Positions 11,831 through 57,322 of a stretch of 64,000 nt of DNA are shown piece by piece. Both the position numbers and the translations under genes were made by a program. The DNA is from a phage. The DNA lies in the sequence record PZ445521.1; one strand, given 5' to 3'. The notes beneath the pieces are model-generated. The model was not told where the DNA came from. It searched no databases and worked only from the letters and a program-made list of their open reading frames with translations. Positions within the stretch are counted from its first letter, which is position 1. Every line of letters begins with the position of its first letter.

Positions 11831-12100
11831 TTATTTAAAACGAATAGTTGAATCCTTAAAGAACAGCCCAGAACATACTGTTCCTTCTACTTTCTGCCCG
11901 GTAGGTCCAACAGCACGAAATCCAGTATGTTGGAAATCATTTTCAGAGCAACCGAACCAGTTATATCCAGTGATTTCAATATTCGTAAAACCACTCGATG
12001 ATAAAATTTTAGTTGCATTATCAGCATCAGTACATCCTACTAAAGATACTGCTAATACTAATGCTGCGATAGAACGATTAACATATTTCATAATTTTCAC
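11831..12100 (-). CDS. putative lipoprotein, 89 aa
   Basis: Signal peptide with lipobox LVGC; ORF track. Confidence 0.55.
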   Translation of the reverse strand: MKIMKYVNRSIAALVLAVSLVGCTDADNATKILSSSGFTNIEITGYNWFGCSENDFQHTGFRAVGPTGQKVEGTVCSGLFFKDSTIRFK

Positions 12101-12468
12101 TTAAATTTAATGGCTTGAAGGAGACTAATAATTCTTAAACGGCTTCTTTCATCTTTAACTGTAAAAGAAAGAGGATCGCCAGATTTCATAGTGATAGTGC
12201 ATTCAAAATCAAAATCTTCGGAAACTTCTTTGAAGAAGTCAAATTCTTCATCATAAATTAGAACATTACTCTGACAACTATGAAGAATTTTTCCATCATT
12301 TCCAGATGCTGTACTAATCATTGTAACATTATGACCTTTCATATCTTCAACGATAAATTCACTAGTCAATATTACAGCATTAATAGAACTATTCCTATTA
12401 CTAGCAGAAAGTAGATATTTCTGTTCTTCACCTTCACGAATGCGATATTTCTTACCAATTTTAAACAT
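12097..12468 (-). CDS. hypothetical protein, 123 aa
   Basis: ORF track; 4-nt overlap coupling. Confidence 0.5.
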   Translation of the reverse strand: MFKIGKKYRIREGEEQKYLLSASNRNSSINAVILTSEFIVEDMKGHNVTMISTASGNDGKILHSCQSNVLIYDEEFDFFKEVSEDFDFECTITMKSGDPLSFTVKDERSRLRIISLLQAIKFK

Positions 12469-16733: not shown

Positions 16734-18053
16734 TCACACATAAAACACATCATAACGACCACGTGTTACACCAACATAAAGAAGCTGCTGAGCTAGTTCA
16801 GCATCTGCATAATGAATACAAGGCGTATAAATGAAAGCACGGTCTACAGACATACCCTGGGCTTTATGGAATGTTGATGCAGGAAGTGCTTTCACTTTAC
16901 TAAACTGTGATTTAGCATCCCAAAAATCACTCCACGGAGCCTTTCCGCCTTTATTCCAATTTTTATAAGTTTCTGCCGTTTTACCTAAAAACAGGTTAAA
17001 CTTATATAGCTCTTCATCAGATGAAATTATTTTAATCTTTTCACGATAATATTCATCATCGCCGTAAGTTTCTACTGTTAAATCCCAATGACGAATTAAG
17101 TATTCTCCAGGAACACCACGAGCTTTAACAAACGTTGATGTATACTCTGCTTCTATAATACGAACTAATTGTCCATTATTAAAAATAATTTCTGATACCG
17201 GTTTTCCGTCAATTTTATACGTTTTAATTAACGGTTCTTGCATTACAATAATTTCACCGACAATAAAGTCTTTATCAGTTTCAAAAATCTTTTTGCGAAT
17301 AATATTGTTTAACTTATCAACAGATTTATTCGTAAATGCCATTACGCGATTTTCAAACAAATCATCTAATGATTTTACGATTGAAAAATAATTTACCATA
17401 AAATCACGTAAAGCGGTATCACCAGTAAATCCACGTACTCCATGCCCGTCAACAACTTTATCATAAATCCACTTACCGTTGCGAACATCAGTAGCTACAT
17501 CAATAATAGGAGCATTACTGCGTTTAACTTCAGTAAGTTCACACTGATAAAAATCTTTGTGTGTAAAGAATGGACTGATATAAGCAGTATTTTCTCCTGG
17601 GTCAACAGGTCTAATTTGCTTATTATCGCCTATTCCAATTATAGTACACCACGGTGGAATAGTTGAAAGCAAAATTTTGAAGAGCTTTCTATCATACATT
17701 GACACTTCGTCGCAGATTAATACCCTGCATTTAGCTAAATCTGGTACTTCCTTCTGTTCAAAAAGAACGTTTTCTTCATACGTAACTGGGTTAATTTTAA
17801 GAATACTGTGAATAGTACTCGCTTCTTTCCCTGACAGTTTTGAAAGAATCTTTTTAGCTGCATGAGTAGGAGCTGCTAAAATAATACCAGTTTCACCCGT
17901 AGATATTAAAGCTTCAATGATGAATTTTGTAAGAGTAGTCTTACCAGTACCAGCAGGTCCATTAATAGTTACATGATGTTTCTTTTCTTTAATAGCCCTC
18001 ATAACGATGTTAAAGGCATTTTTCTGGCCTTCTGTCAAATCATCAAATGTCAT
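16734..18053 (-). CDS. dda: Dda DNA helicase (SF1)
   Basis: 439-aa ORF, same length as T4 Dda; Walker A GPAGTGKTT; synteny. Confidence 0.88.
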   Translation of the reverse strand: MTFDDLTEGQKNAFNIVMRAIKEKKHHVTINGPAGTGKTTLTKFIIEALISTGETGIILAAPTHAAKKILSKLSGKEASTIHSILKINPVTYEENVLFEQKEVPDLAKCRVLICDEVSMYDRKLFKILLSTIPPWCTIIGIGDNKQIRPVDPGENTAYISPFFTHKDFYQCELTEVKRSNAPIIDVATDVRNGKWIYDKVVDGHGVRGFTGDTALRDFMVNYFSIVKSLDDLFENRVMAFTNKSVDKLNNIIRKKIFETDKDFIVGEIIVMQEPLIKTYKIDGKPVSEIIFNNGQLVRIIEAEYTSTFVKARGVPGEYLIRHWDLTVETYGDDEYYREKIKIISSDEELYKFNLFLGKTAETYKNWNKGGKAPWSDFWDAKSQFSKVKALPASTFHKAQGMSVDRAFIYTPCIHYADAELAQQLLYVGVTRGRYDVFYV

Positions 18054-18361
18054 CGGAAAGTCCCTGCAATTGGAATACTAACAATACGCCCAGTATCTAG
18101 AATTCGTTGATATAATCTTTGTGTATCTACATCAGGCTTAACATGTTTAACTTCTATTTTATTAAACCAAAACTTGCGTGGAGTCTCAACTAGTCTTGGA
18201 ATTCCCATACCTAAAGCTAGTTTATATTGGTCTTTGAGAGTAGTAAAAACTCTATCAGCAATCTCTCTTTCAAAAAACACAGCAGGACGATGTTCATCAA
18301 GTGGAACTGGCGCCGTAAATCCGTCTTTGTCTCGGTAAACTATCGCGTATACATAAACCAT
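18050..18361 (-). CDS. hypothetical protein, 103 aa (dda.1-like)
   Basis: ORF track; 4-nt overlap with dda. Confidence 0.5.
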   Translation of the reverse strand: MVYVYAIVYRDKDGFTAPVPLDEHRPAVFFEREIADRVFTTLKDQYKLALGMGIPRLVETPRKFWFNKIEVKHVKPDVDTQRLYQRILDTGRIVSIPIAGTFR

Positions 18362-18362
18362 A

Positions 18363-19109
18363 TTATCCTCGGATAAGTTTAAACATTGAACAATTTAGCG
18401 GGTATCCTCTTTTCAGTTTAAGTTTATCAATAAAAGACAAATTTTGATACCGCTCTACACCTTGAATAATTTTATCACACATATCATATTGCATTTCTGC
18501 TTCTGACAGCTTTTTCACAATTTTCCAATCCGAGCCTTTAAGAAGAACGTTCAATTTAACAACTTCAGCGCCTTCTGCTATGCGAGAACCATCAATACGT
18601 GCTTTAAGTGCTATAATCCTTAGCTTAATGTCAGAGGTCTGTTTTGATTTAGAAAGCTGAGAAATGTGTTCAATTCGGTTTTCACGTTTTTTCTGTATAG
18701 CTTTAATTTGATTATAAGTCTTTTTGATTTTAGCCCATTTCTTTTCATCTAAATTTAGTTTATGAACTTTTTTCGCAGATGAACGACCAATTCGCAAAGC
18801 AAACAAATCACGTTTTTCAATTAACTCCTCTAAAGTATAATCAGAACGAAATGTATTATACTTTTTCTTTACTGCAATAACATTCCCTTTAATGTATCCA
18901 ATGTTATTATCAAAACGTTCTAATGATAATTTCTCTCCTTCAATACGATTATCAAAAGGTTCTCCTGAATAGGCACAAACTTTTTGATCTAAAATATTCT
19001 TAATGTAATTGAAGTCTAAGTTAAAATCTTTAGAACGTCTTTTTGCAGATGCCTGAGTGTGCTCTAAACGACGTTTAATTTTACGAATTTGATTATTAGA
19101 CAGTTTCAT
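18363..19109 (-). CDS. srd: Srd-like protein, 248 aa
   Basis: Length and position (between dda and modA) as for T4 srd; very basic protein. Confidence 0.55.
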   Translation of the reverse strand: MKLSNNQIRKIKRRLEHTQASAKRRSKDFNLDFNYIKNILDQKVCAYSGEPFDNRIEGEKLSLERFDNNIGYIKGNVIAVKKKYNTFRSDYTLEELIEKRDLFALRIGRSSAKKVHKLNLDEKKWAKIKKTYNQIKAIQKKRENRIEHISQLSKSKQTSDIKLRIIALKARIDGSRIAEGAEVVKLNVLLKGSDWKIVKKLSEAEMQYDMCDKIIQGVERYQNLSFIDKLKLKRGYPLNCSMFKLIRG

Positions 19110-19139
19110 ATTTTCTCACATCTTACGGACGATTGACTA

Positions 19140-19175
19140 CTATATTATAACATTTTTACCTTGGCTTGTAAACAA
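19140..19175 (-). promoter_or_regulatory. early promoter (-35 TTTACA, -10 TATAAT)
   Basis: tgtaaa 19167-19172, attata 19144-19149, 17-bp spacer. Confidence 0.55.
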
Positions 19176-19182
19176 TTTTATG

Positions 19183-19212
19183 AAAAATGCTTCAAAAATT
19201 TCATGGTATAAT
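19183..19212 (+). promoter_or_regulatory. plus-strand MotA-box middle-promoter-like element
   Basis: Plus strand aaaaaTGCTTCA (19183-19194), 12 bp, TATAAT (19207-19212); would transcribe antisense into modA. Confidence 0.35.
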
Positions 19213-19229
19213 GAATCTAAGTCCTTCCG

Positions 19230-19832
19230 TTATAGATTAAATCCTTCAAAATCAAGAGTATAGATAGTATATGTTGAATACTTTTTATACTCATATCTAT
19301 CTGCAATTCTAAATACACTTCCAGCTGGTATCATTACTTCTTGTTCATCTGAAACTAATTCCATATTACGATAACGATGGCTATCCGGAAACTTAAAGTT
19401 TGGATTGTATTCTTTACAGCGTAGAGCTTTTATAGCATACTCCTGGAAATTGAATACCATAGGAGCTTTGAATTCAAAAATAACTTGTGTGTTATACTCT
19501 AAACCAGAAGCAAAATGTAGAGCTATATTTTTATCATATGAAGCTGATACTACTTTATCAAATGTAATAATATCAATTCCTTGATTTAACACCTGCTTAG
19601 TCTCAGCTGGAACACCTCTCCAAAGAGGTTTATCGTTTGGAACCAAACGAGATTTGATTATTTCATTTAACCAAGAATGATCGTCTGGTTTATTAGTAAT
19701 ACAATGAATTAAAAGTTCAATTTCAGATAAATTAAACCCTTCAGAAAGTAATTCTTCACGAATAGAAGCACGCACCGATGCATCCATTGATTTTATTTTA
19801 AAATCTTTTAGTTGCATTACTGAGTATTTCAT
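19230..19832 (-). CDS. modA: ModA-like ADP-ribosyltransferase
   Basis: 200-aa ORF, same length as T4 ModA; paralog of adjacent 207-aa ORF; synteny. Confidence 0.65.
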   Translation of the reverse strand: MKYSVMQLKDFKIKSMDASVRASIREELLSEGFNLSEIELLIHCITNKPDDHSWLNEIIKSRLVPNDKPLWRGVPAETKQVLNQGIDIITFDKVVSASYDKNIALHFASGLEYNTQVIFEFKAPMVFNFQEYAIKALRCKEYNPNFKFPDSHRYRNMELVSDEQEVMIPAGSVFRIADRYEYKKYSTYTIYTLDFEGFNL

Positions 19833-20452
19833 TCAACTACCTCAATATCATAAACTTTAAATGTTCCAAATGAATCGTGTAATTTTTCTTTTGAAATAGA
19901 AGTTATTCTATACTTTCCAATTGGAATCATCCATTCTTGTTCACGCACAATCATCATTAAGTTATCAGTACGCTCTGAATCTAGCCCATCAGTATCTTCA
20001 TACGTGTACTTAAACTCAGTATTAGGAGAAGAAAGTATAATATCGCTGATATGGTCAGAATAATTAAAAGCTTTATTAGTTTTTAAGCGAAGTATTATTT
20101 TAGTAAAATATTCAGCGTAAGAAAAAGAACATGCTGTGAGCAAACTAGTAGTAAATGAATCTACTCTATTCGTTGAAAACACTTCTCCAACTTGTAAATC
20201 TTTAATAAGTTCTTCTGTTGATTTTGATATACCACGATATAACTGATAAGGTGATTTAGTTAAATGCTTTTTAATGATTTTATTCAACTGCCGATGAAGA
20301 GCTTCATTCTTTTTGGCTTCCATACATTGCCAAAGAACTGACTGCTCAAAGTCAGTAAATTTTTCACAGACCTTTTTATACATATCATATTGAAAATCGA
20401 CGCTTTCAGCTTTTATAGATAACTGTTCAACATCTGCAAGATTAATAATCAT
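19829..20452 (-). CDS. modB: ModB-like ADP-ribosyltransferase
   Basis: 207-aa ORF, same length as T4 ModB; 4-nt overlap with modA. Confidence 0.65.
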   Translation of the reverse strand: MIINLADVEQLSIKAESVDFQYDMYKKVCEKFTDFEQSVLWQCMEAKKNEALHRQLNKIIKKHLTKSPYQLYRGISKSTEELIKDLQVGEVFSTNRVDSFTTSLLTACSFSYAEYFTKIILRLKTNKAFNYSDHISDIILSSPNTEFKYTYEDTDGLDSERTDNLMMIVREQEWMIPIGKYRITSISKEKLHDSFGTFKVYDIEVVE

Positions 20453-20474
20453 GATAGCCTCCGTATACTTCAGA

Positions 20475-20510
20475 AGCTATCATATCATCGTTAGAAAGGA
20501 AAGTAAACAA
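20475..20510 (-). promoter_or_regulatory. early promoter (-35 TTTACT, -10 TATGAT)
   Basis: agtaaa 20502-20507, atcata 20479-20484, 17-bp spacer. Confidence 0.45.
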
Positions 20511-23501: not shown

Positions 23502-23529
23502 TATTTTTCCTTTCAATTCATGGGTTAGT

Positions 23530-23562
23530 AGATTAATTATACAATAAATATATAAAGCAATA
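23530..23562 (-). promoter_or_regulatory. middle promoter (MotA box TTGCTTTA, 11 bp, TATAAT)
   Basis: Plus-strand taaagcaa 23553-23560 and attata 23536-23541; upstream of gene 56. Confidence 0.55.
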
Positions 23563-50155: not shown

Positions 50156-50625
50156 TTTAAACTCTTTCTAAGCTGCTTCTTGAATGAAGCTATTAATTGT
50201 GTTTTGGTGTCAGATTCATTATATTCAAATCCTCTTTGAAGCATCTCGGCCATCATTTCCTCTTTTCCTAAACGAGAAAATTCCTTTGATTTATCTCCAA
50301 CGAAGTTAGGGTGAATATTATTTTGGGTGTAATCGGATTTTAAATAAGTAAGTAAATTTTCTAACCATTCAAGATAATCAACACCTTGTCCCTTTAAGCC
50401 AGAACGATTAAATTTATGCTTCATTTGACCTTCTGCGGCATTGCAGAGATTACAAAGCAATCCACGTACCTTTCCTGCTTTTGGTCCATTTAATTCATGG
50501 TCATGGTCGAGGTGATTAGCTTGAACGTCAGGATTTAGTTCTCGTTGGCAAATTAAGCATTTACCATTTTGTGCATCATAAAATTTCTGTTTTTCTTCTT
50601 TGTATAATTTGCCAGTCAATAACAT
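50152..50625 (-). CDS. 49: endonuclease VII gp49
   Basis: 157-aa ORF recognised as T4 endo VII; cysteine/histidine zinc motif. Confidence 0.9.
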   Translation of the reverse strand: MLLTGKLYKEEKQKFYDAQNGKCLICQRELNPDVQANHLDHDHELNGPKAGKVRGLLCNLCNAAEGQMKHKFNRSGLKGQGVDYLEWLENLLTYLKSDYTQNNIHPNFVGDKSKEFSRLGKEEMMAEMLQRGFEYNESDTKTQLIASFKKQLRKSLK

Positions 50626-51780: not shown

Positions 51781-51996
51781 TTACCCCAGTTTGACCATGC
51801 AATCGCCGTATTTCCACTTAGAAATAGACTTTTCACCATTAGAATAATAAACTTCGAGTTTAGCACGATTATTTTTAATTTGAATAACCTTGGCTGTCAT
51901 CAAAGTTCCATACCCATAATAAACTGCAACCTCATCACCTACATATACCGCGCTTCCGCGGTAATCATGGATATAATCAGTTCCTTCGAGAATCAT
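51781..51996 (-). CDS. hypothetical protein, 71 aa
   Basis: ORF track. Confidence 0.45.
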   Translation of the reverse strand: MILEGTDYIHDYRGSAVYVGDEVAVYYGYGTLMTAKVIQIKNNRAKLEVYYSNGEKSISKWKYGDCMVKLG

Positions 51997-57267: not shown

Positions 57268-57296
57268 AATAATCTCAATTAAAAGGGCTTAGAACC

Positions 57297-57320
57297 ATTA
57301 TACCATCCTTGGTATAAAGC
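57297..57320 (-). promoter_or_regulatory. middle promoter-like (GCTTTA, 12 bp, TATAAT)
   Basis: Minus strand reads CGCTTTATACCAAGGATGGTATAAT. Confidence 0.4.
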
Positions 57321-57322
57321 GG

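Follow-up and report, generated by a model that had tools for sequence, protein, structure and literature searches.

The middle promoters of phage T4 that depend on MotA and AsiA, such as PuvsX and PrIIB2, operate by sigma appropriation. They carry a MotA box at -30, followed after 11-13 nt by the -10 hexamer, and have no -35 hexamer, and about half of them display the TGn extension of the -10 element (PMC2988021). The spacer between srd and modA of a T4-like phage that itself encodes motA contains an element with this organization, TGn included. It differs from the described members of the class in that it is oriented opposite to prereplicative transcription, is followed by no gene and is convergent to an early operon, and it is not one of the 58 mapped T4 promoters.

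In phage lambda, OOP RNA is made from the promoter pO, is antisense to the 3' end of cII, triggers cleavage by RNase III and lowers cII expression. The locus described here shares with OOP and cII a convergent promoter placed just past the stop codon of a dosage-sensitive early gene, and a predicted untranslated RNA that would overlap the 3' end of the mRNA. Its geometry is also reminiscent of 3'-overlapping antitoxin RNAs. However, OOP has a discrete length of 77 nt, a terminator of its own and a promoter independent of any phage activator, whereas the element has neither a conserved terminator nor a defined transcript length and its promoter belongs to a temporal class.

Two further T4 systems are relevant. 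The origins oriF(uvsY) and oriG(34i) use promoters with MotA boxes whose transcripts act as R-loop primers rather than as mRNAs (PMC3016281); unlike at these origins, no origin has been mapped at 11.9 kb, the T4 position of the element, and no distinctive unwinding element lies downstream of it. Antisense transcription of gene 32 provides a T4 precedent at a different locus (Belin et al. 1987, as cited in PMC2988021).

An orthologous site is on record for RB69. The entry 'Pm:12081 (+)' in Additional file 4 of Nolan et al. 2006 spans positions 12081-12122, and thus covers aaaaTGCTTTA-13-TATAAT on the plus strand of the srd–modA spacer. It is a mere HMM prediction with a low score (7.9), with no comment on its orientation, conservation or meaning. 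In T4, none of the 58 mapped middle promoters in Table 1 of the Hinton review maps near 11,897, the nearest ones being Pdda.1 (11138) and P56/69 (16813) (PMC2988021), and the GenBank and RefSeq T4 records have no promoter features at the srd–modA spacer. A T4 dRNA-seq study reports 150 start sites, 22 of them antisense (bioRxiv 10.1101/2024.04.04.588121, 2026 version). A full-text literature search pairing antisense transcription with MotA, middle promoters or modA returned no description of an antisense middle promoter here; subscription papers might mention one. We regard this antisense middle-type promoter as new, or at least undescribed, within a known promoter class.

Two promoters in the srd–modA spacer

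The window, i.e. the whole 64-kb stretch of DNA that was analysed, comes from a Tequatrovirus. Its positions 18900-19500 are 100% identical to Shigella phage JK38 (601 bases compared), and about 500 Tequatrovirus genomes match the same segment at 90-99% identity. According to the T4 annotation, the minus strand of this region codes for dda (16734-18053), dda.1 (18050-18361), srd (18363-19109), the RNA polymerase alpha ADP-ribosyltransferase ModA (19230-19832) and a second ADP-ribosyltransferase, ModB (19829-20452), whose gene is the upstream one of modA's early unit. ModA has been characterized as highly toxic (PMC2988021). Also present in the window is motA, the gene of the activator that recognizes MotA boxes, as a 211-aa ORF on the minus strand (1086-1721); this promoter class needs both MotA and AsiA, and asiA possibly lies outside the window.

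At the start of modB, a 14-pair inverted repeat on the minus strand (20450-20484, TATGATAGCTTC...GGAGGCTATCATG) spans the -10 of the modB early promoter, the Shine-Dalgarno sequence and the ATG. Its transcribed part could mask the modB ribosome-binding site.

The divergent promoter pair is located within the 120-bp spacer between srd and modA. Its minus-strand member is the early promoter from which srd is read (19144-19173), detected by a promoter scan. It consists of GTTTACA (19173-19167), 17 nt and TATAAT (19149-19144), with a TG before the -10; taking TTTACA (19172-19167) as its -35 hexamer, it scores 11 of 12 matches in addition to the TG. This promoter is conserved in the Tequatrovirus alignment and annotated as such in phage DalCa. 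It is probably the Pe11.5 of T4 named in PMC6024815, an assignment based on an inferred 0.35-kb offset between map systems.

The 5' UTR of srd harbours an 11-mer at 19121-19131 (plus strand TCTTACGGACG, srd mRNA CGUCCGUAAGA), some 12-20 nt ahead of the srd start codon. A core of 10 nt within it, CTTACGGACG, is exact in Tequatro-, Mosig-, Gapriver-, Dhaka- and Jiaodavirus, while the surrounding UTR diverges. The 11-mer sits within the spacer of the antisense promoter in Jiaodavirus, and it is clipped by a 7-nt deletion in the Tequatroviruses HY01, pSs-1, F26 and Lv5cm. This 11-mer could be a translational or processing signal for srd.

In the plus-strand member of the pair, an A-run, aaaaa (19183-19187), precedes the box core. 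The MotA box, aaaTGCTTCA (19185-19194, with TGCTTCA at 19188-19194), is centred near -30 and conforms to the consensus (a/t)(a/t)(a/t)TGCTT(t/c)A. It is followed by a 12-nt spacer (19195-19206) that ends in TGg, with the TG at 19204-19205, by the -10 hexamer TATAAT (19207-19212), and by a conserved discriminator and start region, GAATCTAAGT (19213-19222), of pattern G(G/A)nTCTA. Given the usual 7-nt distance, the predicted start is A19219 (about 11,897 in T4), 11 nt outside the modA stop codon. The sequence 17 nt upstream of the -10 (19184-19189) reads AAAATG and is not a -35 hexamer, and the promoter scan reported no plus-strand sigma70 promoter at the element.

The sequence-only reading of this DNA had proposed a MotA box and a TATAAT on the plus strand at 19183-19212, forming a middle promoter that points into modA beside the srd early promoter. 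We found its coordinates and its reading of the letters to be correct, and the early srd promoter and the plus-strand middle-type promoter do stand back-to-back. The plus-strand member has all the sequence features that would be expected of a MotA-dependent middle promoter, with a GCTT core that is invariant in 10 lineages and a hexamer of the TAnnnT type within 11-13 bp of the box. That reading had not mentioned the TG, which makes the element an extended -10 promoter, TGnTATAAT. Given this extension, the element may not strictly need MotA.

Motif counts in the window show an excess of such sites. TGCTTNA-N11-13-TANNNT occurs 18 times against 4.7 expected, and GCTTYN-N11-14-TATAAT nine times against 1.0 expected. 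Seven of these nine matches follow prereplicative transcription in their direction, on the minus strand, and two are on the plus strand. In a looser scan (GCTT core and at least five of six positions of the -10), 20 sites were found on the minus strand and three on the plus strand. The site at 19188 is the only plus-strand site of the 64 kb that combines an A/T-rich triplet, TGCTTYA, a 12-nt spacer, TGn and a perfect TATAAT, and it ranks among the best matches of either strand; the remaining two of the plus strand are poor. For GCTTY...TATAAT, the plus strand has just one match besides the element, at 51952-51977 (GCTTCCGCGGTAATCATGGATATAAT), with a 14-nt spacer, which is out of range; it is probably fortuitous.

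A functionless chance match in A+T-rich DNA has to be considered for the element itself. The two other weak plus-strand matches in the window speak for this explanation, as does the argument that a match to the consensus is not enough to make a middle promoter: Stoskiene et al. in 2007 reportedly found some good consensus matches that yield no transcript. Taken by itself, one such site per genome could still be due to chance, and it is the comparative data that rule this out.

Conservation and linkage to the mod genes

Conservation was first considered within the genus, in an alignment of 11 Tequatroviruses that included T4, T2, T6, RB5, HY01 and pSs-1. All 11 have the same box, TGn, -10 and next 20 nt, apart from differences at the t/c position within the box and at two positions of the spacer. 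The T4 box is the consensus TGCTTTA, an even better match than the TGCTTCA of the window. The other half of the srd–modA spacer shows indels and substitutions. Among 18 distinct sequences, nucleotide diversity was 0.017-0.023 over the promoter half (19170-19229), versus 0.075-0.082 over 19110-19169.

For comparisons across genera, we collected the srd neighbourhoods of phages whose Srd proteins are only 32-72% identical. Their intergenic DNA cannot be aligned, yet GCTT-(12-13 nt)-TATAATG recurs opposite mod, just beyond the last mod stop codon. The element reads TGCTTTA-13-TATAAT in RB69 and pEK20 (Mosigvirus), in the Klebsiella phage Clarke_MM3 and in fHe-Yen9-01 (Tegunavirus), and TGCTTTA-12-TATAAT in MX01 (Dhakavirus). 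The other versions are CGCTTTT-12-TATAAT in VR25 and CJ20 (Gaprivervirus), TGCTTTT-13-TATAAT in STML-198 (Gelderlandvirus) and TGCTTTC-13-TATAAT in KP13MC5-5 (Jiaodavirus). In an alignment of ten lineages, GCTT and TATAATG are invariant, the hexamer being so in all lineages that carry the element, and the spacer is free in sequence with a length of 12-13 nt (14 in an Acinetobacter phage). The TGn is present in six of the nine Tevenvirinae lineages compared, or seven of ten if the Acinetobacter phage is counted. Invariant half-sites on either side of a free spacer of fixed length point to a two-part promoter, rather than to an RNA structure or a single protein site.

We also looked for the element by motif and independently of it. 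GCTTTN-N11-14-TATAAT gave one match per fetched locus, always in the same orientation, with a single extra match in all, which corresponds to a background in these loci of roughly one additional match for every 60 kb of strand scanned. For the motif-independent test, a search of IMG/VR by Srd alone gave seven loci; a profile of ten mod proteins was used instead and gave 25. All 25 loci harbour the element opposite mod, and they include at least two further sequence-distinct lineages. Over these loci and the compared lineages, the predicted start falls near the mod stop codon, at most 3 nt inside it and at most 39 nt beyond it.

In Jiaodavirus only, a second antisense-oriented match (GGCTTTAATACC...TATAAT) is found inside a small gene upstream of mod, on the strand opposite mod (560-585 in locus L027, about 1220 in loci L140-L142).

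The refuting condition named along with the sequence-only reading, absence of the motif from related phages, is clearly contradicted: T4 has the element, which is kept across about nine T4-like lineages. Half-sites and spacing persist across those lineages while spacers and flanks diverge beyond alignment, and the 25 motif-independent loci have to be set against the low background given above. On these comparisons a chance match is effectively refuted, and we consider it highly improbable; the plus-strand element is very probably under selection.

The arrangement of the locus varies in two lineages. In Clarke_MM3, a dmd-like gene lies between mod and srd, and the element remains next to mod, some 200 nt away from the early promoter of srd. 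The product of this gene (locus positions 1251-1442) matches Pfam Dmd with E = 7e-7; the dmd gene of T4 is located elsewhere. In STML-198, the srd early promoter is on the mod side of the element, and the two promoters point towards each other, their predicted starts nearly coinciding. There, within locus positions 1393-1459, TTTACT-17-TAGAAT of the early promoter faces the antisense middle-type promoter, in contrast with the back-to-back layout of the window, and polymerase binding at the two facing promoters should be mutually exclusive. Together, these layouts indicate that the element is tied to the 3' end of mod and not to the divergent arrangement.

We also considered that the conservation might reflect a mere A/T-rich UP element of the srd early promoter. 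This was rejected, as the exact GCTT and TATAAT are kept, and it is also contradicted by the separation of the element from the srd promoter in Clarke_MM3 and STML-198.

The same layouts bear on an explanation by protein occupancy, in which MotA alone or the polymerase with MotA and AsiA would stand in the way of early read-through, as a roadblock or 'sitting duck', or would occlude the srd early promoter by covering its UP-element region or core, the RNA being a by-product. In the window, the MotA box (19185-19194) indeed lies between -40 and -60 of the srd early promoter, and the face-to-face promoters of STML-198 fit occlusion too. RNA structure, terminator and ORF are all unconserved, and in a motA-amber infection srd RNA increases 1.48x with modA and modB unchanged. 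Nevertheless, in Clarke_MM3 the srd promoter is about 200 nt away and separated from the element by a gene, so that proximity is conserved to the mod stop codon instead, and a perfect -10 and a conserved start region exceed what a binding site needs. Occupancy as the main function appears improbable to us.

The element is not present in all relatives. It is absent from the RB49-like Krischvirus Ec_Makalu, RB49 being devoid of motA and middle promoters (PMC1524935), as well as from Serratia phage 4S, whose mod–srd gap is 39 bp, and from Jiangsuvirus PspYZU05. MotA homologues are annotated in about 1,140 phage records, among them Serratia and Acinetobacter phages. Since Serratia T4-like phages generally have MotA, the absence of the element from 4S implies that it is dispensable in some lineages. 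The element is thus not universal among MotA-encoding phages.

The lineage distribution can be used to judge how far MotA is involved. Extended -10 promoters need no contact at -35 and are resistant to AsiA. A constitutive, MotA-independent sigma70 promoter of this type would produce antisense RNA from the first minute and would buffer the toxicity of ModA and ModB for the whole of the infection; it would be active in cloned DNA too. Such a promoter would agree with the occurrence of TGnTATAAT in most of the Tevenvirinae lineages compared, with the ability of extended -10 promoters to work in the presence of AsiA and without a -35 contact, and with the unchanged modA and modB RNA levels in the motA-amber infection. 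Yet without MotA there is no explanation for a GCTT that is invariant and at the right distance in every lineage, including the three that lack TGn, and the element is missing from the MotA-less Krischvirus. We thus view a purely constitutive promoter as rather unlikely, while stimulation by MotA is somewhat probable.

The copy of the Acinetobacter phage vB_AbaM_3014 (Lazarusvirus) was left out of the core evidence. It reads TGCTTTA-14-TATAATGGTTCTA, on the minus strand of the locus (1556 to 1350), and is antisense to an srd-like gene. It precedes a non-coding segment of about 175 nt with good folding (-55 kcal/mol, z = -3.8); the strong hairpin at the end of this segment is shared by a convergent Macro-domain gene, and no Rfam match was found for it. 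In about 50 Acinetobacter phages, part of the segment is present in 5-6 copies per genome. Because of this repetition, which may denote a generic promoter cassette, we dropped the idea that this copy represents an orthologous small-RNA gene. The segment could thus belong to a mobile promoter/leader cassette, or else to a family of small RNAs.

The predicted transcript and mod expression

The predicted product of the element is a non-coding plus-strand transcript antisense to modA (19219-19650, the end being nominal), which may run into modB. With regard to geometry only, the locus has the layout of a cis-antisense system, with a promoter convergent to mod and a predicted RNA complementary to the mod 3' end. 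In the 400 nt downstream of the element, no two lineages share an ATG-initiated ORF of at least 15 codons at a similar position. Two weak terminator-like hairpins on the plus strand at 19614-19650 could end an RNA of about 430 nt, and terminator scans revealed nothing comparable in RB69, VR25 or STML-198. Rfam scans of the window region and of eight related loci gave no match at E up to 1-5. Folding of either strand of the spacer and modA 3' end was not significant (z = -0.81 and -0.66). The locus is thus devoid of the defined 3' end or structure of a discrete RNA, with no conserved terminator, significant fold or Rfam family, and its putative product is best regarded as antisense transcription that is not translated and has no defined length.

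The 10 conserved nt that follow the -10 were considered as a special RNA 5' end. This possibility was rejected, as the same pattern is present at ordinary middle-type promoters of the minus strand, namely those at 57290, 50211 and 23529. These three (57290-57321, 50211-50243 and 23529-23559) share TATAAT(G/T)(G/A)nTCT(A/G) with the antisense promoter. The G(G/A)nTCTA pattern is therefore part of the promoter class, and there seems to be a subset of middle promoters with a conserved discriminator and start context outside the usual consensus.

An untranslated transcript from a middle promoter might also prime replication. The element would then be an origin-type promoter, whose R-loop transcript primes leading-strand synthesis as at oriF(uvsY) and oriG(34). 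Both of these origins use middle promoters, and a MotA-dependent transcript has been implicated at oriA (PMC3016281). The 100 bp downstream of the element have 27% G+C, the 8th percentile of the window; however, ordinary middle promoters are followed by similarly A+T-rich DNA. The mapped origins are elsewhere, with oriA near soc (PMC3016281), and the estimated 56/69 region has a minus-strand promoter match of its own, placed about 550 bp off the published start. A tight link to the mod stop codon would not be expected of an origin either. Identity with T4 oriA was rejected on account of the location of soc, which we take to be about 3.5 kb from the element. Overall, we hold an origin-type function to be quite unlikely.

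Published stranded RNA-seq data compare a motA-amber with a wild type infection at 5 min (PMC6024815). The ratios are 0.88x for modA, 1.11x for modB and 1.48x for srd, with an amber allele that is leaky; in the same data set, 44% of early genes are up at least 2-fold. The flat levels of modA and modB sense RNA argue against a strong MotA-dependent destabilization of the mod mRNA, and they lend no support to the switch-off of the ADP-ribosyltransferases that the sequence-only reading had suggested. These data weaken the antisense model, with a force that is limited by the leakiness of the allele and by the possible MotA-independence conferred by the TGn.

In the same comparison, dda.1 and dda decrease to 0.23x and 0.30x, respectively, while srd directly upstream increases (PMC6024815). 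This fits the mapped position of Pdda.1 inside srd and makes the srd/dda.1 boundary a sharp regulatory border.

A possible antisense control of the mod operon

The explanation that we favour, with slightly more confidence than doubt, is that of a genuine middle-class promoter kept by selection, which drives an untranslated RNA head-on into the mod operon and limits its expression. Its parts can be graded separately. That the element is active as a promoter in vivo is likely. That it chiefly serves to restrain mod or early read-through is a more tentative proposal, which we would not rate as probable. The analysis establishes the sequence anatomy of the element, its statistical rarity, its conservation and its fixed place at the mod stop codon, from which we go on to infer the firing of the promoter, its MotA dependence, the length of the transcript, and the sign and size of any effects on mod, srd or dda.

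The mechanism that we envisage is as follows. The MotA box at -30, the 12-nt spacer and TGnTATAAT would launch a transcript from about 19219, complementary to the modA mRNA from 11 nt past the stop codon inward and possibly on into modB. The promoter would become occupied when AsiA and MotA remodel the sigma70-RNA polymerase, a few minutes post-infection, and unmodified polymerase may occupy it earlier still by way of the TGn. Convergent transcription and pairing of sense and antisense RNAs would then reduce expression of the ADP-ribosyltransferase genes, and would likewise limit early read-through from Pe12.8 into srd and dda. In addition, occupancy of 19185-19240 would extend over the upstream positions -40 to -60 of the srd early promoter, which stands back-to-back with the element. 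The OOP-like geometry and the toxicity of ModA favour control of the mod operon and of early read-through, by cis-antisense RNA or by collision, since the terminator scan revealed no minus-strand terminator after modA. The complete scheme, in which MotA sets the time at which head-on RNA and polymerase traffic shuts down modA and modB and remodels read-through into srd and dda, is doubtful in our view.

T4 is the reference for temporal control of phage transcription. Deletion of modA or of asiA does not abolish the early shut-off (PMC2988021). A wrong-way middle promoter, maintained over a long evolutionary period right at the end of an operon for toxins that modify RNA polymerase and translation, is a concrete candidate for a part in shut-off that can be tested cheaply. 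If it turns out to be silent or neutral, it will still be a useful case of a perfect, conserved consensus without promoter action. Gene-by-gene promoter catalogues have missed conserved antisense units, even in T4. If the proposed control is true, the element would bring an RNA- or collision-based component to the long-unexplained shut-off of T4 early genes, and it would be the first regulatory antisense unit tied to the early-to-middle switch.
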